DNA of 64,000 nt from positions 96,001 through 160,000 of the forward strand of contig JBOEGF010000005.1 in the NCBI GenBank assembly GCA_050633305.1, given 5' to 3'. Both the position numbers and the translations under genes were made by a program. Below are positions 54,259 to 63,534 of the stretch, one piece after another. Origin of the DNA: Nannocystales bacterium. Its GTDB lineage: Bacteria; Myxococcota_A; Polyangia; Nannocystales; Nannocystaceae. Below the pieces are notes generated by a model, which ran no database searches, was not told the origin of the DNA, and was given only the letters and a program-made list of their open reading frames with translations. The stretch's first letter is position 1, and each line of letters starts with the position of its first letter.

Positions 54259-56040
54259 CTAGAGTGATTCCAAGTACGCCACGATGGATGCGACTTGCTC
54301 GCCATCCAACTCCGTGCCGCTCGCGGTCGTGCTCGCCATGTCGAGCACGGCCTCTTCCAGCGTGAGGGCCCGAGCATCGTGCATGTAGGGGGCTCGTAGA
54401 GCGACACCGCGCAGTGCGGGTGTTTGCAAAGGACCGTGTCCGAGGTCCGATGATGCGGCAGAGGTGAAGCTGGGCCCAGCGTGGCAGCTCGCGCAGCCGA
54501 GGGATGCGAAGAGTTGCTGCCCTTTTGCGGCGCTTGCGTCCGACTGCGAGCGTAGTGGGTTCGGCGGACGCAAGGAGAACATCCAGTCGCGGAGGGCAGC
54601 CTGGCGTTCCTCGGTCTGCTCGATGCCACCCATGGCTCCTTGCCGAACTTGCCGCGCGATCATGTGGATGTCCTCCATGTCCCCTTTCCAGTGGAACGGG
54701 GCGGTTCCTTCCAGTCCTACGTTGAGGGGTTGTGTTCGTCGTGGCCCCGCGTCAAACAACCATGTCCGGCCGTCTTCCCCGCCTTCGGGGTGACACGATG
54801 CGCACGAGACCCCTTGTCCGGCGTTGTTGTGGAACAGCTCGAACCCGGTGTCGTCGGCATCGGCGCCAGCGAGCTCGAGTTGTTCAGTCTGCGCGCCTTG
54901 GAATCGGTACAGAATCGGTTTGTCGCGAGCCTGGGCGAGCAGCGCATCGTCGGGTTGAAACGCGACCGCGACAATGTCGTCATCGACATCCAGAGGGGTT
55001 GGAATCTCGCATTGCCTGTCGCCCCAGGTCGAGGTGGAGTCCAGTCGGACTTCGAACACTGAGATGCGATCTTCGGTCGTGAGGTCTTGTTGGGTTGGGC
55101 TGGCGATCGCGACTCGCTTGCCGTCCGGGGACAACGCGACGTCGACCGAGAGTGCGAGCCCCGCGAAGACCCCGGCGTTGTGAACGACTCCGTCTTCGCG
55201 TGTCGCACTGAGCGTTGTGTTCACCACTGCGGAACAGGGATCGAGACCTCCGTACCCGGACTCCTCGAAGTTGTCGTGTGCGTCCGGCTCCTCGAAGCCT
55301 GGGATGACGCGGGTCGAAGCCAGCTGGTGCAACATGAGCCATCCGCCGCCCGGCCGCAGGAGGGTTCGCCACGCTGTGGTCGGCTCCCGGGTCGTGCCCT
55401 GGTTGATGATGGACACCGGAGCACCGAACAGGCTCCACGCTCCATCGTCCTCGAGTTCGATGAGCTCGGCGGCACGGAATCGGGTGACGAAGAGGCGGCC
55501 CTCGGAGACCAGGACGTCTCGTAGGTCCGAGGCGACGAAGCGGCGCGTTGGCTCTGCGCCGGATTCGGGGAGCGTGACGACCATGCCGCCCGCACATGCG
55601 ACGTGAAGGGCTTGGTTCGTCTCGTCAAACGCGACCCCGCGGGGGTTCGGACACACGCTGGTCGTCTTGGTGACGCGCGCTGACTCGGGGTCGAGGGTGA
55701 GCAGCGTGCCGGGTCCGCGCAGCGTCACGTGTACCCGGCCGTCGTTGTCCTCGGTTGCACGGAAGGGCAGCGCACCGGCTTCGAGATCGATCGTGCCGGT
55801 TTCTTGCCAAGCGTTGAGGTCGACGATGTGAATCGAGTCCCGAGCAGGATCGGAGACCACCGCGTGCCCACCGTCGTGGGTCACCAGGAGGGTGCCACCC
55901 ATGATCGGTGGCGCGAAGCCGGCTCGTTGCACGGCGCCCGTGCCTGGGTCTTCGATGGGGTCGGGAAGATCGACGGCTTCACAGCCTGCACCGATGAGCA
56001 AGAGCAGGGACAACGAGTACGCGCTGGGTCTGGATTTCAT
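54259..56040 (-). CDS. lipoprotein with YncE-like beta-propeller and di-heme cytochrome c (peroxidase-like) domain
   Basis: GAGC lipobox; two CASCH motifs; RRTQPL, TAPFHWKG, TPALRG..APYMHD. Confidence 0.85.
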   Translation of the reverse strand: MKSRPSAYSLSLLLLIGAGCEAVDLPDPIEDPGTGAVQRAGFAPPIMGGTLLVTHDGGHAVVSDPARDSIHIVDLNAWQETGTIDLEAGALPFRATEDNDGRVHVTLRGPGTLLTLDPESARVTKTTSVCPNPRGVAFDETNQALHVACAGGMVVTLPESGAEPTRRFVASDLRDVLVSEGRLFVTRFRAAELIELEDDGAWSLFGAPVSIINQGTTREPTTAWRTLLRPGGGWLMLHQLASTRVIPGFEEPDAHDNFEESGYGGLDPCSAVVNTTLSATREDGVVHNAGVFAGLALSVDVALSPDGKRVAIASPTQQDLTTEDRISVFEVRLDSTSTWGDRQCEIPTPLDVDDDIVAVAFQPDDALLAQARDKPILYRFQGAQTEQLELAGADADDTGFELFHNNAGQGVSCASCHPEGGEDGRTWLFDAGPRRTQPLNVGLEGTAPFHWKGDMEDIHMIARQVRQGAMGGIEQTEERQAALRDWMFSLRPPNPLRSQSDASAAKGQQLFASLGCASCHAGPSFTSAASSDLGHGPLQTPALRGVALRAPYMHDARALTLEEAVLDMASTTASGTELDGEQVASIVAYLESL

Positions 56041-56279
56041 CGTGCCGGGTTCTCCGTTGTTCAATCCACGCGCATCGAGGTTCTCAGTTTCCCCCACCTG
56101 GGAGGATGTGACACGGGCAGGGGCTGTACTCCACCTGTCGAGCTGCGGAGAGGACGCGCGCCTTCGATCTGAGGTCACCGGGTCAACCCGTCGGCCTCAG
56201 AACCGGTTGGAAAAAAAATGAGGGTAGAGTGCAACTGAGGGTCGTCGTTGGCGTGGTTGTCGGTAGGCCCCTGACCGGC

Positions 56280-57602
56280 ATGCCGTCGCTGTTCCTCATT
56301 CTTGCGCTCATCGGTGCGTCCGGGCCTCCGGGTACCCAGGAGGCGCTTGGGCAGGACCCCGAGCAAGAGGCTCGCACAGGGCAGCAGCCGATTGTTCATT
56401 TGACCGTCGACGCGGCGCTGAGGCAATGGCTGGTCGTACGGTTGCTCGAGGATGGCTACACGCTGACAACGTCACGGGGCGTCGCCCATGCGCAGCTTGC
56501 GGTCGTCTCGAATGCCGTGGGGGGCTGGCGGGTGACCGCGACTGGAGAGTCGACCGTTACCTACGATGTCGAGCCTGCGGCCGATGCTGCGGTTCTCCGA
56601 CTCGAGCTGCTGCATCGGTCGATTGATGCGCTCGAAGACGTGGTCCCTTCGAGTCCTTCGGGTTCGCAGCCCGCGACGGTGGGCCTCGTGGTCTCCGAGC
56701 TCGCCCCGGCTTCGCTCGCCCCCCAGGTTGCGGCGGGAGTTCTTGCAGCTGGAGCAGTCCTCGTCCCAGCGGGGACACCTTCGCAGCTGAGGGTGTGTGC
56801 GGACCAAGCATCGGGGGAGCACAATCCCCGAATCTCGGTCATCGATGGCAATGGTGAGTGTGGAGCGGACGCTGGTGCCGGAACCGTCAAGGCTGGAGAC
56901 GACGCCTTGCATTCGACGACGGCGCTGGTGACTGCTGCCATCGCGACGCTCCCCGCCGGGGTCGACCCGGGTCCAGAGGATGTCGCCGTATCCGAGCCCG
57001 AACTCGAAGAGCCTGAGGAGCCTATCCACGCCGAGACGGACGACGAGCGGGCACCGGGCCAGGAGCCCACACGCTCCCGCTTTCGAACACCGGTTCAGGG
57101 AGCACCCCGGGTTCTGCGGCTTGGTGTAGCGACGGGGTTCATCAGCAGAGGGCCTGTCGCAGACGCTCTGGTCGCGGCCTCGATGACGGTCGGACGAGAG
57201 CCCGGGATTCGGGGCTGGCTCGAGCTCCAGGCTAGGCCTGTGACCGTGATAGGGGCGCTGCGGGTCATCGAAGTGACGCCCGCCATCGGATTCAAACTGC
57301 GACCGCTGACGGTGGGCCGCGTTTCGCTCGAGACCGGTCTGCTGTTGGGCGCGGACATCCACGCCTACCAGCTCGAAGCTGAGCAGGCGACGCAACGAGG
57401 CTCACACACCGCGGCTTCGTTGGAGTCGGCGTTGGGTGTGGCGGTTCAGATCTGGAAGCTCCACGAGATTCACCTCGGGCTGCGCTTGGGCGGAGGCATG
57501 GAACGCATCCACCGAGTCCAGGGAGAGGAAGTCTGGCGCCGCGGAGCCTTTCGGGTTGGCGTGACCGTCGGGTTCTCTTTCGGACTGGGGAGGAGCACGT
57601 GA
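56280..57602 (+). CDS. exported protein with acidic/Pro linker and probable C-terminal beta-barrel
   Basis: Signal peptide; EPELEEPEEP linker; amphipathic strands ending VGVTVGFSFG; GTGA-coupled to ECF gene. Confidence 0.7.
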   Translation: MPSLFLILALIGASGPPGTQEALGQDPEQEARTGQQPIVHLTVDAALRQWLVVRLLEDGYTLTTSRGVAHAQLAVVSNAVGGWRVTATGESTVTYDVEPAADAAVLRLELLHRSIDALEDVVPSSPSGSQPATVGLVVSELAPASLAPQVAAGVLAAGAVLVPAGTPSQLRVCADQASGEHNPRISVIDGNGECGADAGAGTVKAGDDALHSTTALVTAAIATLPAGVDPGPEDVAVSEPELEEPEEPIHAETDDERAPGQEPTRSRFRTPVQGAPRVLRLGVATGFISRGPVADALVAASMTVGREPGIRGWLELQARPVTVIGALRVIEVTPAIGFKLRPLTVGRVSLETGLLLGADIHAYQLEAEQATQRGSHTAASLESALGVAVQIWKLHEIHLGLRLGGGMERIHRVQGEEVWRRGAFRVGVTVGFSFGLGRST

Positions 57603-58150
57603 ACGCCGAGTCGAGCAAGTTCGCGTTGGTCCACGAGGATGTCGACACCCGTACTCGTGTTCGGGTGCTGTACCGGCGTCACCGAGACGACGTGTATCGA
57701 CTCGCGCTTCGCTATAGCCAGGGCGACGCGACATGGGCGGAAGACATCGTCCAGGACGTCTTCGTCACGCTCTGTCGGAAGGTCGACAAGCTCGACGACG
57801 ATACCGACCTCGGCGGGTGGTTCTACCGTGTGACGCACAACCGGTGCCTCAGTCGACTGCGGCGGCGTGCCGTAGCCCAGTCGCCGGCGGTCCGGTGGCT
57901 GCTCGGTCGCCGGGCCGTCTCGCACGACGACCGGCGAGCTGAAGACCGGGCTGGGCTGCACGAAGTCTTCAAGATCGTAGACGGGCTCCCTCCCAATCAG
58001 CGTCTCGCGTTCTGCATGTACCACCTCGATGGGATGGAGCAGGCCGAGATCGGCGAGGTCTTGGGGCACTCCAAGAGCTACGTTTGCAAGCTCATCAAGC
58101 GTGCGACCTCCACCATTGAGAAGACGCAGGAGGCGTGCGATGCCGACTAG
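57599..58150 (+). CDS. ECF RNA polymerase sigma factor
   Basis: AEDIVQDVF, GGWFYRVTHN, LPPNQR, EIGEVLG. Confidence 0.92.
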   Translation: MNAESSKFALVHEDVDTRTRVRVLYRRHRDDVYRLALRYSQGDATWAEDIVQDVFVTLCRKVDKLDDDTDLGGWFYRVTHNRCLSRLRRRAVAQSPAVRWLLGRRAVSHDDRRAEDRAGLHEVFKIVDGLPPNQRLAFCMYHLDGMEQAEIGEVLGHSKSYVCKLIKRATSTIEKTQEACDAD

Positions 58151-59249
58151 CCGCGAAGTCATCGAGCGACTCAAGGCGGCGGACCGTTCGCTGGCCAACG
58201 AACGGATGCCACGAGCTGCGGCTCGGCGAGTCGCTCGGAAGGTCTCCGCGGAGTTGGAGAGTCAGTCCCGCCCAAGTCGGATGGGTTGGATCCCGATGCT
58301 CACCTTTGTCGCAGGTGCGGCCTTGGTGTTGTTGTTCCTGAGGTGGAGTACGGACGAACCCAGGTCGCTCACCGAAGATCGGTCGGAGTCCGTGGCCATG
58401 ACGGTGCTCGTGACCGGTCCCGCGTGCCGCTCGAATAGTGCCGCAACCACGACGGTCTGGGGGGCGTGCAGCATCTCTACGGAGGGTCCCTCGATGAGTA
58501 TCGACACGATTGACGGGTCCCATCTCGAGGTCGGCGACCGGGTGGTCGACCTTCGTTCGGGCTCGGCGTTGTTCGATGTCGATCCCGTCCGTGGCGACCC
58601 GGTTCGGATCGTTGTTCCTCAAGGAGAGATCGTCGTCGTCGGGACGCGATTCCGGGTGGTCGTCGGCGAGGCCCGAAGCGAGGTCGAGCTGTACGAAGGA
58701 CGTCTCGAGTTTCATGACGGGTCGGGGAAGGTCACGCCCATCCTGGCGGGGCAGCACGTGGGGTTCGGTCAACCGGCTCAACCTGCGCGCCCGGCTGCCG
58801 AGGAGTCCCCGTCGACGAAGCCGGTCTTGCCGCAGACGCCCGACGCTGACCAGCCGCCGCAGGCCGACGACACGGTTTCGCGGGCTCGGCCTTCCGTCCC
58901 GCGTGGCTCGTCGAAGCGGAAAGCTCGACGTACGGCCGAGCTGGCTCCGATGGAGGACGACGCAGGCCCGGTGATCGAAGCCGCGGAGAAGCTCCGGCGG
59001 GCGGGACGTTACGCCGACGCGGCGGCGACCCTCCGCGCGGCATTGAAGCGACGATGGCCGAGGCGCACCGCCGATGTGCTCAGCCATGAGCTGGGGCGCT
59101 TGCTCGAGCGACGAATTCGTGACCAAGCATCCGCATGTCGGCACTGGGAGAAGCACCTCGAGCGCTTCACGAAGACCCGCTACCGAGCTCGGATCGAACG
59201 CTCGATGACCGAGTTGGGTTGCGAAGCTGCCGTCTCTGAAGGCGGGTAG
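58140..59249 (+). CDS. FecR-domain anti-sigma factor with C-terminal TPR-like domain
   Basis: TM helix; LRSGSALFDV, VVGTRFRV, VELYEGRL; AGRYADAA...HLERF TPR-like tail. Confidence 0.88.
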   Translation: MPTSREVIERLKAADRSLANERMPRAAARRVARKVSAELESQSRPSRMGWIPMLTFVAGAALVLLFLRWSTDEPRSLTEDRSESVAMTVLVTGPACRSNSAATTTVWGACSISTEGPSMSIDTIDGSHLEVGDRVVDLRSGSALFDVDPVRGDPVRIVVPQGEIVVVGTRFRVVVGEARSEVELYEGRLEFHDGSGKVTPILAGQHVGFGQPAQPARPAAEESPSTKPVLPQTPDADQPPQADDTVSRARPSVPRGSSKRKARRTAELAPMEDDAGPVIEAAEKLRRAGRYADAAATLRAALKRRWPRRTADVLSHELGRLLERRIRDQASACRHWEKHLERFTKTRYRARIERSMTELGCEAAVSEGG

Positions 59250-59349
59250 TGCGCATACCGGAATCCTCGACCCGCGGCTGGGTCTTCGTTCAGGCGGCAA
59301 AGCTCCAAACTTGGCGCGCGCAAGCTGCGGGTAGGTACGATGCGCACCT

Positions 59350-60918
59350 GTGGTCGACGCGCGCCGAGAGCTGATCGAGGACCTCCACGGCTGTTACGAC
59401 GCCGGCACCCTGCGAATCCTGGTGGGTGCTGGGGTGTCGATGGCCTCGGGCTTGCCCGGATGGGATTCGCTCAACCTCGGATTGCTGCGCGCTGTGATCG
59501 AGTCGGACCTGCGCGGCCGATGTGAAAACGGGGAGGGGGCGGCCTATGTCCGGTCGCTGGTCGGGGACGAGGCGATCGAGACGCTCACCCAGGAGGTCTA
59601 TCGACGGATCGGTCGGGACGCTGCGGCTGACTTCGCGTGGCGTCGGCTTGGAGACACCGAATTCAAGCGTCAGTTGGCGAGACTCCTCTACCCGCGACAG
59701 ATCGAGCGGCTTCCACTTCGAAGCACGCAGCGTCAGCTCGCTGCGATGGCGCAGCAAGTTGCGGCCCGCGACCTGTTGTTTACGACCAACTACGATCCGA
59801 TTTTGGAGCGAGCGATCGCCGAGCTCCGAGGCGCACCCGAAGAGTGGGCCAAGCATCGCCACCCGCTGAGTGCACGCAGTCGCTCGAGTGCGCGACCGCG
59901 TGTCCATCACCTCCACGGATGGTTGGACGAGCGCGGAGCGGTGGGCGGCACGCTCGTCCTCACCGAGACCAGCTATCTCGGGCTCTTTGCCGACAAGCGG
60001 GCAACGCCCAACACCGATCTCAAGAAGCTGTTGATGGGCAATGCCCCCGTGCTGGTGCTCGGGATGAGCCTGGCCGACCCCAACTTGCGCCGCCTTCTCG
60101 ACCGCCGCCGCATCACGCCGCTTCGCGATGGCGACAACGCGATCTATGCGGTCATGGTCGGCGGCAACGAAGCTGCAGACGATCAGATCAACCAGTACTG
60201 GACGGGAACCTGGAACGTGAACCCGCTTTGGCTGCCGAACTTTGGCTACATCCCGCACCTGCTTCGGCAAGTTCAATGGGGCTGGACCGGAGATTCGCTG
60301 CCGTGGTTCGACGAGTGCAAGGCTTGGGTCGACGCGCAACTCGGGGACCTTCGGTTCACCGACGCGTGGCAGCGACGTGCCAACCGGTCACTGAAGACGC
60401 TGGTCGACCACGTGCGTACGTACTTCGGCCTCGAGCCGGGCGAGGTGATCACAACGAGCCTCTTCTTGCCCGAGCTGGAAGACGACCGGCAAGTCCTTCA
60501 GCTGGTGGCCACGTCGCGGCACGAACGCGCCGGGGAGGATGCCCGCAAACACGCCGCGCTTCGGGCGTTGAAGCTGAGCCCTGAGCGCTCGGTCCAAGGG
60601 GTCGCAGGCATCTCGTTTCACTTCGGCAACAGCAACGACGCTTGCGACAACCACCCCAGCATCAACTACAACTTCAGCTCCAAGCAGGTGCGGGAGTGGG
60701 ACCGGGCGTTCAACATGCGGGACTGGCGGTCGATTCTTGCGGTGCCGGCCCTGGATGGAGAAACGTGGCTCCCGTACGCCGTGATCACGTTGACGTCCAA
60801 CTTGGCCAAGCCGTTCTGGCGGCATTTTGGCAACGAACGCCACGACCTTCCGGTCCTCAAGACCTTGATGCGCCGGGTCTGCAAGGAACTCGTGGCCCAC
60901 CACGGCCTCACCCCCTGA
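59350..60918 (+). CDS. SIR2-like (SIR2_2) domain protein with C-terminal GAF-like domain
   Basis: LVGAGVS..SGLPGW, TTNYD, HLHG, LVLTETSY, LGMSLADPNL; C-terminal QGVAGISF, RSILAVP, AVITLTS. Confidence 0.85.
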   Translation: MVDARRELIEDLHGCYDAGTLRILVGAGVSMASGLPGWDSLNLGLLRAVIESDLRGRCENGEGAAYVRSLVGDEAIETLTQEVYRRIGRDAAADFAWRRLGDTEFKRQLARLLYPRQIERLPLRSTQRQLAAMAQQVAARDLLFTTNYDPILERAIAELRGAPEEWAKHRHPLSARSRSSARPRVHHLHGWLDERGAVGGTLVLTETSYLGLFADKRATPNTDLKKLLMGNAPVLVLGMSLADPNLRRLLDRRRITPLRDGDNAIYAVMVGGNEAADDQINQYWTGTWNVNPLWLPNFGYIPHLLRQVQWGWTGDSLPWFDECKAWVDAQLGDLRFTDAWQRRANRSLKTLVDHVRTYFGLEPGEVITTSLFLPELEDDRQVLQLVATSRHERAGEDARKHAALRALKLSPERSVQGVAGISFHFGNSNDACDNHPSINYNFSSKQVREWDRAFNMRDWRSILAVPALDGETWLPYAVITLTSNLAKPFWRHFGNERHDLPVLKTLMRRVCKELVAHHGLTP

Positions 60919-60969
60919 CCGCTCTGGACACCGCGTTCGCGCAGCGGTGCTACACTTTCGATCATCGAC

Positions 60970-61179
60970 ATGTCCGCGACTCCCAAAACCAAACCGGTGC
61001 GCAAGGCCTCGGCCCGCCGCAAGAAGCGTGGCACGACCGCGCAAACGATCCGGTTCGACTTCGACAAGCACGGTGCGCAGGCAGCGTTCGTCGACGTGCA
61101 GGACGAGTCCACACGCGATGCTTCTGACCTGATCGCGGCGGCCATCCAGCAGAGCTGGGACGCCCTCGAAGACGAGTAG
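60970..61179 (+). CDS. small protein (69 aa), basic N-terminus and acidic C-terminus
   Basis: Coding-like codon bias; TACACT box upstream; fills gap after the SIR2 gene. Confidence 0.7.
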   Translation: MSATPKTKPVRKASARRKKRGTTAQTIRFDFDKHGAQAAFVDVQDESTRDASDLIAAAIQQSWDALEDE

Positions 61180-61258: not shown

Positions 61259-62260
61259 GTGTCGGTCTGGCCATTGCTGCTGCTGCTGGTCGCCTCCCCG
61301 ATCGAGATCGGAGCATGGAGTGTTCCGCCGAGCTGTGCGTCGAGGGCTGCGTTCATCGAGAAGGTGGAGGCCGAGGCTCAGACCAGTTCTGGGTCGGACG
61401 AGCCCCCGGTACTCGAGGCCGACATTCACGTCGAGGAGGTCGCGGTCGATCACTGGCGGTTGCGGCTACGCTTGCGCCGAGACGGGCGGGACGACGCGCG
61501 GTCGTTCGACGCGAGCAGCTGTGCCGCGGTGGTCGAGGCCGCCGCGGTGGTCGTCGCATTGCGATTGGTACAGGCTCGGCAGGACGAGACTTCGAGGTCC
61601 CGCGCTGCTGTCTCCGTGCCCGAGCCGCCTCGGGAACCCGTCCCGATTCCGCTGCCGGACCCTCCTTCTGCGTTGCCGCTCGCGACAGCACCCGAGCCCA
61701 TCCCCGTCGAGACTTCACGGGACCCGTCACAGGATCAGCGGTCACGGGTCGGAGGTTGGGTCGGAGTTCACCAGGGACTCGCCTTGGGTATCGCTCCAGG
61801 TATTGGAGGTGGCTTTGGCGTGGATGGAGGTGTGACCGGACAGTGGTGGCGTGCGGGCCTCGGTGTGCACGCGGCTCTTCGGCGTACGGAGACCCATCCT
61901 GATGAGCCCGGCATTCGCGGACGCTTCGACCTCGTGACCGGAGAATCGTTCGCATGCGGCACACCCAAGGTCGGTTCGCTGGTGTTCCCGATCTGCGGCC
62001 GATTTGCGGTCTCTGGAATGCGGGCGGTGGGGGAAGGAGCGGTGAGGACCTCCGAGTCGGTGTGGGGGACCTGGTTGGGGGCTGGCGGATCCGCCGGCCT
62101 CGCGTGGCACGTCACCGAGCGTGTCGCGCCCGCGTTGTCCGCGGTCGCGTTGGCGCCTCTTCAGGACTGGGCGTTCTCCGTAGGGGACGCTCCGGGCACC
62201 CTTCACCGAACTGGCCCGGTAGCGCTCCGAGTCTGGGCGGGTCTGGAGATTCATTGGTAG
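61259..62260 (+). CDS. exported protein with Pro-rich linker and probable C-terminal beta-barrel
   Basis: Signal peptide; two-Cys N-domain; PEPPREPVPIPLPDPP; strands ending LRVWAGLEIHW (terminal aromatic). Confidence 0.75.
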   Translation: MSVWPLLLLLVASPIEIGAWSVPPSCASRAAFIEKVEAEAQTSSGSDEPPVLEADIHVEEVAVDHWRLRLRLRRDGRDDARSFDASSCAAVVEAAAVVVALRLVQARQDETSRSRAAVSVPEPPREPVPIPLPDPPSALPLATAPEPIPVETSRDPSQDQRSRVGGWVGVHQGLALGIAPGIGGGFGVDGGVTGQWWRAGLGVHAALRRTETHPDEPGIRGRFDLVTGESFACGTPKVGSLVFPICGRFAVSGMRAVGEGAVRTSESVWGTWLGAGGSAGLAWHVTERVAPALSAVALAPLQDWAFSVGDAPGTLHRTGPVALRVWAGLEIHW

Positions 62261-62266
62261 TTCGCT

Positions 62267-62293
62267 CCACAAATCCAGGACGTGGGCTGCATT
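62267..62293 (+). promoter_or_regulatory. putative ECF autoregulatory promoter CCACAAA-N17-ATT
   Basis: Same motif and spacing at 63496-63522. Confidence 0.5.
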
Positions 62294-62310
62294 GCCAGCT
62301 GTCCCCTCCG

Positions 62311-63534
62311 ATGCCAGCCGTTTCCCAGGACAGAACGTCTTCGTTTGCCGCCGTCTACCGAGCTCAGTTTGGCTTCGTCTGGCGCACGTTGCGCGCACTT
62401 GGTGTTGCGGAAGGCTCTGTGGACGACGCTCTACAGGATGTGTTCTTGGTCGTACACCGTCGACTTCCCGGTTTTGAGCCTCGGGCACCGATCAGTGCGT
62501 GGCTCTACGAGATCACGCGGCGAATCGCCTACCGGTACCGAACGCGGGCCGCGCGGGATGCGACCCGAACCTGCGAGTTCTCCGAGTTGCCCGCCGGCGG
62601 TGATCTCGACCGTGACCTCGACCGGTCGAGGGCAGCGACCGTCATGCGGGACTTCTTGTGGAGGCTCGACGAAGACCGCCGCCGAGCGTTCGTACTCTCG
62701 GAGTTCTCCGGGATGCCTGGTCGTGAAATCGCCGAGGTGCTCGGAGTCAACATGAACACGATCTACGCCAGAGTTCGCTCCGCCCGGATTGAGCTCGATC
62801 GTACGGCCAAGCGCATGCGCGCTCAGGACTCGGCTGCGGTGGTTCGAGTGCTTCGCAGAGAGCGGCCTCCCACGGAGACCGAGCGGCGTACCTGGGCTGC
62901 GGTGATTGCAACGGTCGGAGGGTCGGCCAGGATTGGCGCAGAGGTCGGCATCTTGGCGTGGGCGGCTGGGGGGTTGTGCGCGGGTGCGGTCGTGCTTGCA
63001 TCGTGGGCAGCGCTGCCAAGCGCCCCGGGGGTGGAGTCCGTTCCTACGCTGCCGCACGCTCCTACGGTGGAGTCCGCTCCTGCGGTGGCGGCGGCCGGGA
63101 CGCCAGCGCCACCGCTTGCTCCTGCCCCTGTGCCCGAGCGGGGTCGCAGCGTGGTTGAAGTGCCAGCGTCGCGAGCTGAGCCAAGGGATGCTCGGGTACG
63201 TGTGGGTCATTCGCCGACGCCGCAGCCATCACTCGCCGAGGAACTGCGACTCGTGCGAGCGATTCGAGGGTCCATCAAGGCGGGACGCTACGGTGTGGCG
63301 CAATCCAAGGTCTCAGCCTACCGAGCGGACTTCGTTCGCGGGGCGCTGCGGCAGGAGGTCGAAGCGTTGGAGGTCGAGTTGGCTTGTCGTACGCACGCGC
63401 CGAACGCGGCCGCGAGGGTGGAAGGCCTTCGACACAGAAGGATCGATGAGGGGCTGCTGGAGCGCCTGAAAATTGTGTGTGGGGAGCGAATCTCCCCACA
63501 AAAACCCGAGCCCACGGAGATTCACACCCGATGA
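62311..63534 (+). CDS. ECF sigma factor fused to TM helix, Pro linker and TPR-like domain
   Basis: VWRTLRALG, DDALQDVFLVVHRRL, WLYEI, EIAEVLGVNMNTIYARV; TM; LAEELRLV...YRADFVRGALRQE. Confidence 0.88.
   Translation: MPAVSQDRTSSFAAVYRAQFGFVWRTLRALGVAEGSVDDALQDVFLVVHRRLPGFEPRAPISAWLYEITRRIAYRYRTRAARDATRTCEFSELPAGGDLDRDLDRSRAATVMRDFLWRLDEDRRRAFVLSEFSGMPGREIAEVLGVNMNTIYARVRSARIELDRTAKRMRAQDSAAVVRVLRRERPPTETERRTWAAVIATVGGSARIGAEVGILAWAAGGLCAGAVVLASWAALPSAPGVESVPTLPHAPTVESAPAVAAAGTPAPPLAPAPVPERGRSVVEVPASRAEPRDARVRVGHSPTPQPSLAEELRLVRAIRGSIKAGRYGVAQSKVSAYRADFVRGALRQEVEALEVELACRTHAPNAAARVEGLRHRRIDEGLLERLKIVCGERISPQKPEPTEIHTR
63496..63522 (+). promoter_or_regulatory. putative ECF target promoter CCACAAA-N17-ATT
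   Basis: Within the sigma gene 3' end, 8 nt before ATG 63531. Confidence 0.5.

Follow-up and report, generated by a model that had tools for sequence, protein, structure and literature searches.

A 64,000-nt stretch of DNA from a Nannocystales bacterium (GenBank assembly GCA_050633305.1, contig JBOEGF010000005.1, positions 96,001 to 160,000 of the forward strand; hereafter the window) carries a real two-gene module of 1.8 kb that is apparently undescribed. The first gene encodes a fusion of an immune-type SIR2 domain with a predicted GAF domain (SIR2-GAF) and the second encodes a small partner protein; the module extends a known class of enzymes that hydrolyse nicotinamide adenine dinucleotide (NAD+), the NADases, by a putative sensor domain and a small partner protein, both of which are new to it. 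The reading preferred here, with a probability of about 0.45, is that of an NADase switch in which the toxin gene precedes the antitoxin gene and which serves dormancy or abortive infection; its activity, binding and role we infer from sequence comparison and structure prediction. The original prediction for this locus, made from the nucleotide sequence, held the SIR2-GAF system to be uncharacterised, and a full-text literature search, with supplementary tables and most subscription journals outside its scope, returned neither a SIR2-GAF protein nor the pair. In the relevant passages of four publications (10.1101/2022.05.11.491447, PMC13069673, 10.64898/2025.12.03.692087 and PMC11381338) GAF domains were absent or unrelated.

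The SIR2-GAF protein

The SIR2-GAF gene is located on the forward strand at positions 59350..60918 of the window, starts with GTG and encodes 522 amino acids (aa). The nearest relatives were labelled Nannocystaceae or Myxococcota. In a homologue search, 34 of 60 homologues were aligned over 83-100% of the query with identities of 32-89%; both the SIR2 motifs and the C-terminal motif set were kept in the alignment. The gene is under purifying selection, with ratios of nonsynonymous to synonymous substitution rates (dN/dS) of 0.03-0.09 against six relatives, and the G+C content of the gene pair region (63-67%) is similar to that of its flanks. The full-length protein was modelled with AlphaFold2 at a mean predicted local distance difference test score (pLDDT) of 87.8 and a predicted template modelling score (pTM) of 0.89.

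The immune-type SIR2 (SIR2_2) domain is encoded on the forward strand by positions 59350..60282 (residues ~1-311) and comprises the motifs GAGVS (residues 26-30), TTNYD (59782-59796, forward strand; residues 145-149), HLHG (59908-59919, forward strand; residues 187-190) and GMSLADPN (residues 238-245). Pfam SIR2_2 was matched by residues 142-276 with an E-value of 2e-17 and 64 bits, compared to a cut-off of 24.5. The best sequence-profile match in the PDB was KomC (E 1.6e-16), with ThsA and DSR2 also matched, and the same three proteins were found with Foldseek for the full-length model (E 3e-9 to 1e-7). N147 of the TTNYD motif and H189 align with the catalytic positions of KomC and of SeThsA, H189 falling on KomC H146 by residue counting along the PDB profile alignment. 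According to the respective reports, mutation of KomC H146 abolishes activity and defence (PMC13454610) and the catalytic pair of ThsA is N112/H152 (10.1101/2024.09.18.613514). Both residues are intact in 59 of 64 full-length SIR2-GAF representatives, counted after the removal of four eukaryotic repeat proteins (P0101, P0156, P0163, P0170) and two generic GAF proteins (P0162, P0172). A CxxC pair is present neither in the window protein nor in the first 330 residues of any of the 64 representatives. The SIR2_2 core without zinc-binding Cys pairs that had been read from the sequence was thus confirmed, and a deacylase sirtuin of the CobB/SIRT type was rejected for the same lack of Cys pairs, SIRT3 being matched by residues 10-41 only (E 0.5). 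Because N147 and H189 are intact and align with catalytic residues of ThsA and KomC, and because CxxC pairs are missing, the SIR2 domain is likely an NAD+ hydrolase. In a subgroup of the family (P0078, P0093, P0087, P0094, P0125 and P0126) an extra C-terminal domain of ~150-170 aa without a Pfam family follows the GAF domain, and both full-length members of this subgroup have lost the catalytic His, so that they may be pseudo-enzymes with another role.

The C-terminal domain (positions 60337..60903, forward strand; residues ~330-518) contains the motifs GVAGISF, RSILAVP and VITLTS, on which the suggestion of GAF-like features had been based. When it was folded alone a pLDDT of 90.8 was obtained, and the top Foldseek matches of this isolated model were GAF domains (probability 1.00, best E 8e-7, template modelling scores of about 0.5-0.57 by query). 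At E<=0.001 there were 119 matches, and those listed were all GAF or GAF-like, including the GAF domains of PDE6, PmGH, Lcd1, NreA, fRMsr, CyaB2 and HD-GYP proteins at identities of 11-20%. Neither Pfam GAF nor GAF_2 was matched in the C-terminal third of the window protein, and the weak GAF_2 matches in 11 of 36 family members were all below the cut-off (best E 0.003-0.01). Atlas neighbours of the domain include GAF clusters at 0.92-0.93. Taken from these models, the C-terminal domain is predicted to have the GAF fold, in agreement with the earlier suggestion. Local similarity to the PmGH GAF was found at E 0.032, with the TGYRT segment of the latter replaced by a Trp-bearing segment; the Thr residues of TGYRT are those which we take to contact the cyclic nucleotide in PmGH.

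A profile of this GAF domain was searched against 1.84 billion representatives and gave 120 matches. Every intact match above the tail of generic GAF proteins has an N-terminal SIR2 domain; the other matches are fragments, artefacts from repeats and, in the tail, two generic GAF proteins. Since the matches left after subtraction of fragments, artefacts and tail are SIR2-GAF fusions, this GAF subfamily appears to be dedicated to SIR2. None of the 120 representatives was found to have the small protein fused to SIR2-GAF. Six SIR2-GAF proteins (P0102, P0118, P0119, P0131, P0143 and P0072) have terminal low-complexity tails of 50-95 aa, often basic, which recall the basic ends of the small proteins and gave no match to the small-family profile. 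GAF domains in conflict systems can also serve other jobs: in CapP the GAF domain lines a groove for single-stranded DNA and contacts a partner protein (PMC13228613).

The small partner gene and its linkage to SIR2-GAF

The small partner gene follows on the forward strand at positions 60970..61179, separated from the SIR2-GAF gene by a gap of 51 nt, and encodes 69 aa with a basic N-terminus, followed by a conserved, apparently strand-like stretch and a predicted helix led by S-T-R-D. The co-oriented protein of 69 aa with a basic N-terminus and an acidic C-terminus is as first described, with 9 Lys/Arg and no Asp/Glu in residues 1-21 and 7 Asp/Glu and 1 Lys/Arg in residues 46-69; this polarity is a trait of this genus, and the part shared across phyla is the putative strand-plus-helix segment with the S/T-T-R-D motif. 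The small gene is real and coding. The protein is 76-94% identical in six of the six closest loci, dN/dS was 0.012-0.17 in seven of eight comparisons over a core of 57 codons (one comparison was saturated), and substitutions are concentrated at third codon positions. Relatives are annotated as hypothetical proteins by NCBI, and no family was found for the small protein in Pfam, PHROG, the PDB or the Atlas.

For the analysis of linkage, 57 loci reaching the end of the GAF domain were collected from genome and metagenome scans and two more from a phylum scan. Of these 59 loci, the 52 with at least 240 nt downstream of SIR2-GAF formed the basis of the count, which, like the promoter count given below, includes related genomes and near-duplicates. 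Downstream open reading frames (ORFs) were picked by eye, not blind, in 47 loci; they encode 52-109 aa, and their starts lie between -20 and +195 nt relative to the SIR2-GAF stop codon. As 675 of 1040 random positions also give a start of a 50-120 aa ORF in an equivalent window, the bare presence of a small downstream ORF was discarded as evidence and homology was tested instead. A supported small ORF lies directly 3′ of SIR2-GAF in 47 of the 52 loci, from Myxococcota, Acidobacteriota and metagenomes with differing flanks, and the linkage in other genomes on which the original prediction depended was thereby recovered. Among these 47 ORFs, 35 could be tied to one broad family with the S/T-T-R-D-led helix and 12 were tied weakly to the family of the window.

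At E<=1e-3, 39 of the picks form five multi-member clusters, and the cluster of the window includes locus L082, the SIR2-GAF of which is only 43% identical. In a held-out test each cluster was left out in turn, with nine near-duplicates and six outliers kept from training. In this test each pick was compared with all six-frame segments of its own locus (34-368 segments), and 20 of the 47 picks, including seven of the eight singletons and L082, took the first rank, compared to about 0.4 first ranks expected by chance according to our own arithmetic. In addition, the small ORF of locus L114, which had not been used in training, was matched blind at rank 1, and no segment reached 15 bits with the small-protein profile in 94 other SIR2 loci. 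In a genome-wide search with a profile built without genus members, the small ORF of the window ranked third (E 0.91) and a paralog (see below) seventh (E 3.9) of 171,727 segments, neither being significant. The small-protein subfamilies track the SIR2-GAF clades in a quick tree, in which L082 joins the group of the window at 99; this tree has long branches and was read for agreement between clades and subfamilies only, not for transfer. A distinct small-protein subfamily is found in an acidobacterial clade (L009, L010, L014, L017, L018, L019, L022 and L029), members of which are located at a common site upstream of a tol-pal-like cluster with TPR/YfiO, OmpA and PD40 genes. In two loci (L010:7962-9654 and L091:1738-3291) the SIR2-GAF frame is split, by a frameshift or an assembly error, and the small gene is intact.

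Both genes are preceded by promoter-like sequences that were recognised by consensus matches. A predicted -10 box TACGAT (59336..59341, forward strand) is located 8 nt before the GTG start codon of SIR2-GAF, and TA(C/G)GAT is present at this distance in nine of the nine genus-level loci listed; the SIR2-GAF transcript is therefore likely leaderless. The small gene is preceded at 13 nt from its ATG by a predicted extended -10 box TG-C-TACACT (60948..60956, forward strand). Its spacing is the same in L001, L002, L003, L006 and L081, although in L006 the SIR2-GAF stop codon is followed by about 145 additional bases. For a count across loci, a TAnnnT hexamer with at least four of six consensus matches at 4-45 nt before the small gene was required, and 43 loci were used, with seven near-duplicates or outliers dropped. 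Such a hexamer was present in 28 of the 43 loci, compared to 10.4 +/- 2.6 in shuffled sequences (maximum 20 in 2000 shuffles) and 6 on the opposite strand. Given these matches in related genomes, the small gene likely has its own promoter; the predicted transcription starts of the two genes are near 59350 and 60963. A terminator scan of the gene pair gave results at chance level.

Seven of seven genomes of the genus also carry an orphan paralog of the small gene, in eight copies (L167-L174) that are about 50% identical and located away from SIR2-GAF; the copy in the genome of the window is at G000:C2:207431-207700 (L172). No SIR2-GAF match was found in the orphan-paralog loci, SIR2-GAF is a single-copy gene in the genome of the window, and the flanks of the orphan paralog are shared in the comparisons listed. 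The paralog may work in trans, or it may have a different target. It adjoins a gene which, by its sequence pattern, resembles a 2-oxoglutarate- and Fe(II)-dependent (2OG-Fe(II)) oxygenase gene, and a promoter-like TTGCGC-17 nt-CAAGGT precedes it in four of the five loci listed.

Genomic setting and relation to known systems

Both genes of the module are present in seven of seven genomes of the genus, at a syntenic site flanked by genes for a fatty-acyl reductase and a pyruvyl-transferase, and neither was found at full length in 33 other relatives. The module is rare, with four strong matches in 401 genomes of the phylum of the window and occurrences in 1 of 401 and 2 of 41 genomes of two acidobacterial samples, centres included. 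In 26 loci 174 neighbouring genes were called, and the 150 scanned with Pfam are metabolic, transport and translation genes, among them one IS1 transposase, one PIN and one MPTase-PolyVal gene. PADLOC, through which 51 neighbours, mostly those without a Pfam explanation, were run, matched four of them, all via generic kinase, PHP or helicase domains. A TIR, HerA, Argonaute, deaminase or HAM1 partner was absent from the 150 neighbours of the 26 loci and from the eight window neighbours scanned, which bears out the statement that partner genes of Thoeris, DSR, SIR2-HerA and short prokaryotic Argonaute (pAgo) systems are not adjacent. No relative was found in viral contigs, the GAF domain was not found in plasmids and the small protein was not found in phages. 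The enrichment in defence islands that the original prediction had envisaged was thus not borne out.

In the window, the pair is flanked by two modules of the extracytoplasmic function (ECF) sigma/anti-sigma type (56229-59249 and 61259-63534), and ahead of each module a membrane or secreted protein without a Pfam family is predicted; Pfam identified ECF sigma and FecR-like genes upstream of the pair and a sigma70 r2/r4 gene downstream. The position between two ECF modules is therefore as had been noticed. These modules were rejected as system components, since they are variable inserts that do not adjoin the pair in most genus loci and do so in no distant locus. Further upstream, a predicted beta-propeller plus di-haem cytochrome c protein of 639 aa is encoded on the reverse strand (54259-56178), a homologue of which is found in L002 on the opposite flank of the pair, pointing to local shuffling. 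Two loci (L016:7887-9641 and L028:7919-9607) form a well-supported SIR2-GAF clade without a recognisable small partner, and in L016 the MPTase-PolyVal gene is directly upstream of SIR2-GAF. A very distant SIR2-GAF-like protein (L040:7884-9527) was found in a Chloroflexota genome beside LigD_N and PHP-domain genes; its GAF-profile match was obtained at E 4.5e-5 in one search and missed in another.

No known system was matched by PADLOC or NCBIfam beyond the SIR2 domain, and the scores were well short of those for whole proteins. A close likeness is to ThsA of type I Thoeris (SIR2-SLOG; PDB 8bto, 6lhx, 7uxt), which was the best Foldseek match of the full SIR2-GAF model and, over SIR2 residues 143-270 only, the best PADLOC match. 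Both proteins have an N-terminal immune-type SIR2 domain with the same N and H motifs and a C-terminal putative sensor. The sensor of SIR2-GAF is, however, a predicted GAF and not a SLOG domain, and a small partner gene is present instead of a ThsB/TIR neighbour; in the absence of SLOG and of TIR among the neighbours, membership in type I Thoeris was rejected. KomC of Kongming (PDB 8zsf, 9v0g), the best PDB profile match with H146 at the position of H189, consists of SIR2 only and needs KomA and KomB, whereas SIR2-GAF has a fused putative sensor; Kongming was rejected since neither a KomA deaminase nor a KomB HAM1 gene is among the neighbours. DSR2 is reported to combine, likewise in one chain, a SIR2 NADase and a C-terminal regulatory part, and to be inhibited by a small protein, DSAD1. 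It differs in its size of ~1005 aa with a helical sensor, compared to 522 aa for SIR2-GAF, and DSAD1 is described as phage-encoded, whereas the small gene is the host's own neighbouring gene. Membership in DSR1/DSR2 (~1000-1260 aa) was rejected on length and on NCBIfam scores for Dsr1 and Dsr2 of only 18.5 and 14.3 bits, where the cut-off is 1400, and membership in SIR2-HerA or short pAgo (SPARSA) systems for lack of a neighbouring HerA ATPase or Argonaute gene.

Parallels in organisation rather than sequence are offered by toxin-antitoxin (TA) pairs. According to the respective publications, RnlAB has a toxin-first order with an internal antitoxin promoter (PMC5535158), the small gene downstream of Sofic is an antitoxin that neutralises Sofic (PMC12249575), and NatRT is a core-genome, NAD-depleting TA system that makes persisters (PMC11535050). 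On these accounts, the order of a large toxin gene, here a predicted one, before a small gene that has, or here likely has, a promoter of its own is shared with RnlAB and Sofic-AS1, and NAD depletion by a chromosomal TA system with NatRT. The toxin folds of these systems are nevertheless RNase, FIC and RES, respectively, and no sequence relation to the SIR2-GAF pair was found. An analogy, and convergence at most, is provided by PDE6 and its P-gamma subunit, a GAF-plus-catalytic enzyme with a small inhibitory subunit, the GAF domains of which were top Foldseek matches. The P-gamma chain is short and disordered and contains a basic stretch. PDE6 is, however, a eukaryotic phosphodiesterase, and no homology between P-gamma and the small protein was found.

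A candidate NADase switch

In the reading as a toxin-antitoxin switch, the SIR2 domain would cleave NAD+ and, as in ThsA, DSR2 and KomC, would probably do so in an oligomer. The strand-helix segment of the small protein would bind to it, with the GAF domain or the GAF-SIR2 junction as the most likely site. A separate promoter would keep the small protein in excess. Its loss or displacement, by phage host shut-off, starvation or proteolysis, would free SIR2-GAF, perhaps with the aid of a ligand bound in the GAF pocket, whereupon NAD+ would fall and the cell would become dormant or die. The gene order would fit a toxin-first pair, with a likely NADase followed by a small, fast-evolving gene with a likely promoter of its own, and the conserved linkage of a predicted toxin with a small protein that characterises TA systems was found here (47 of 52 loci; co-occurrence in 7 of 7 genomes). 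As the loci are stable and of housekeeping type, stress dormancy is at least as likely a role as phage abortion.

The SIR2-GAF pair is not a defence-island gene pair, and its housekeeping neighbours weaken the defence reading. Several observations weigh against the switch as such. Linkage is silent on the sign of regulation, and the small protein could be an activator. The linkage and promoter counts were drawn partly from related genomes, and a generic promoter scan, which requires a -35 box, found no site at the pair. In the held-out test, eight genus members ranked only 2-146 in their own loci and two subfamilies (12 loci) ranked 3-79, so that a single small-protein family over all loci is not proven. 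Five of the 52 loci have no supported partner (none was seen in L016 and L028, that of L040 lacks support, and the small ORFs of L177 and L178, similar in layout, were not matched by the profiles), and an intact toxin without an antitoxin would be problematic. A catalytic residue is missing in 5 of the 64 representatives, and profile searches recognised no DNA-binding fold in the small protein, such a domain being common, though not universal, among antitoxins.

Other explanations account for parts of these data. SIR2-GAF may be a ligand-gated NADase in which a small molecule in the GAF pocket switches on SIR2, the small protein being an adaptor, an activator or an assembly factor. The predicted GAF fold, which is most similar to the GAFs of PDE6, HD-GYP, Lcd1-cAMP and NreA, the canonical GAF proteins in the weak tail of the profile search and a highly conserved Gly-x-Ala-Gly/Phe/Trp/Ser set agree with this, as does the reported signal gating of the SIR2 effectors ThsA and KomBC. 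A signal-making gene, however, recurs nowhere among the 150 neighbours of 26 loci, the TGYRT of the PmGH GAF is replaced, and identity to solved GAFs is only 11-20%; cyclic-nucleotide gating as originally proposed gained no support, since nothing points to a particular ligand. Gating by a ligand does not require a separate small-gene promoter either. We regard this explanation as unlikely. We are also doubtful of a non-lethal housekeeping enzyme that consumes NAD or ADP-ribosylates, with the small protein as substrate or regulatory subunit in metabolic or developmental signalling that has nothing to do with defence. It would be in keeping with the housekeeping neighbours, the single syntenic site and full retention in the genus, the orphan paralog conserved in all seven genomes and the lack of matches in viral contigs and plasmids, and conserved Ser, Thr, Arg or Asp residues could serve as acceptors. 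Yet all close solved SIR2 relatives are NAD-depleting immune effectors, the distribution is very patchy (4/401, 1/401 and 2/41), and the family alignment of the small proteins contains no invariant acceptor residue.

That SIR2-GAF is a stand-alone sensor-effector with unrelated passenger ORFs downstream is highly improbable. The frequency of such ORFs at random positions, the weak similarity across the small-protein subfamilies and the partnerless loci would be accommodated, and the orphan paralog shows that the small family can exist alone. The 20 first ranks in the held-out test, the blind match in L114, the empty result for the 94 other SIR2 loci, purifying selection and co-distribution argue against it, and the small gene is retained where every other neighbour differs.

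The known switches of immune-type SIR2 NADases are phage proteins, signals of nucleotide type and guides made of nucleic acid. If the reading as a toxin-antitoxin switch is true, a host-encoded small protein together with a GAF domain would mean that these enzymes can be controlled in a new way and perhaps by a new signal. Because the pair is located outside defence islands, it would be missed by guilt-by-association screens. A more far-reaching version, which we consider improbable, is that this is the first TA pair with an immune SIR2 NADase as its toxin. In this version the GAF domain would take both a small inhibitory protein and a small-molecule signal, similar to PDE6 and its gamma subunit, the unlinked second copy retained in all seven genomes of the genus would tune the switch in trans, and NAD+ collapse would be a regulated step of dormancy or cell death in myxobacteria and acidobacteria instead of a weapon of defence islands. 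The place of the pair outside defence islands suggests that immune-type SIR2 enzymes may also serve dormancy or developmental death.

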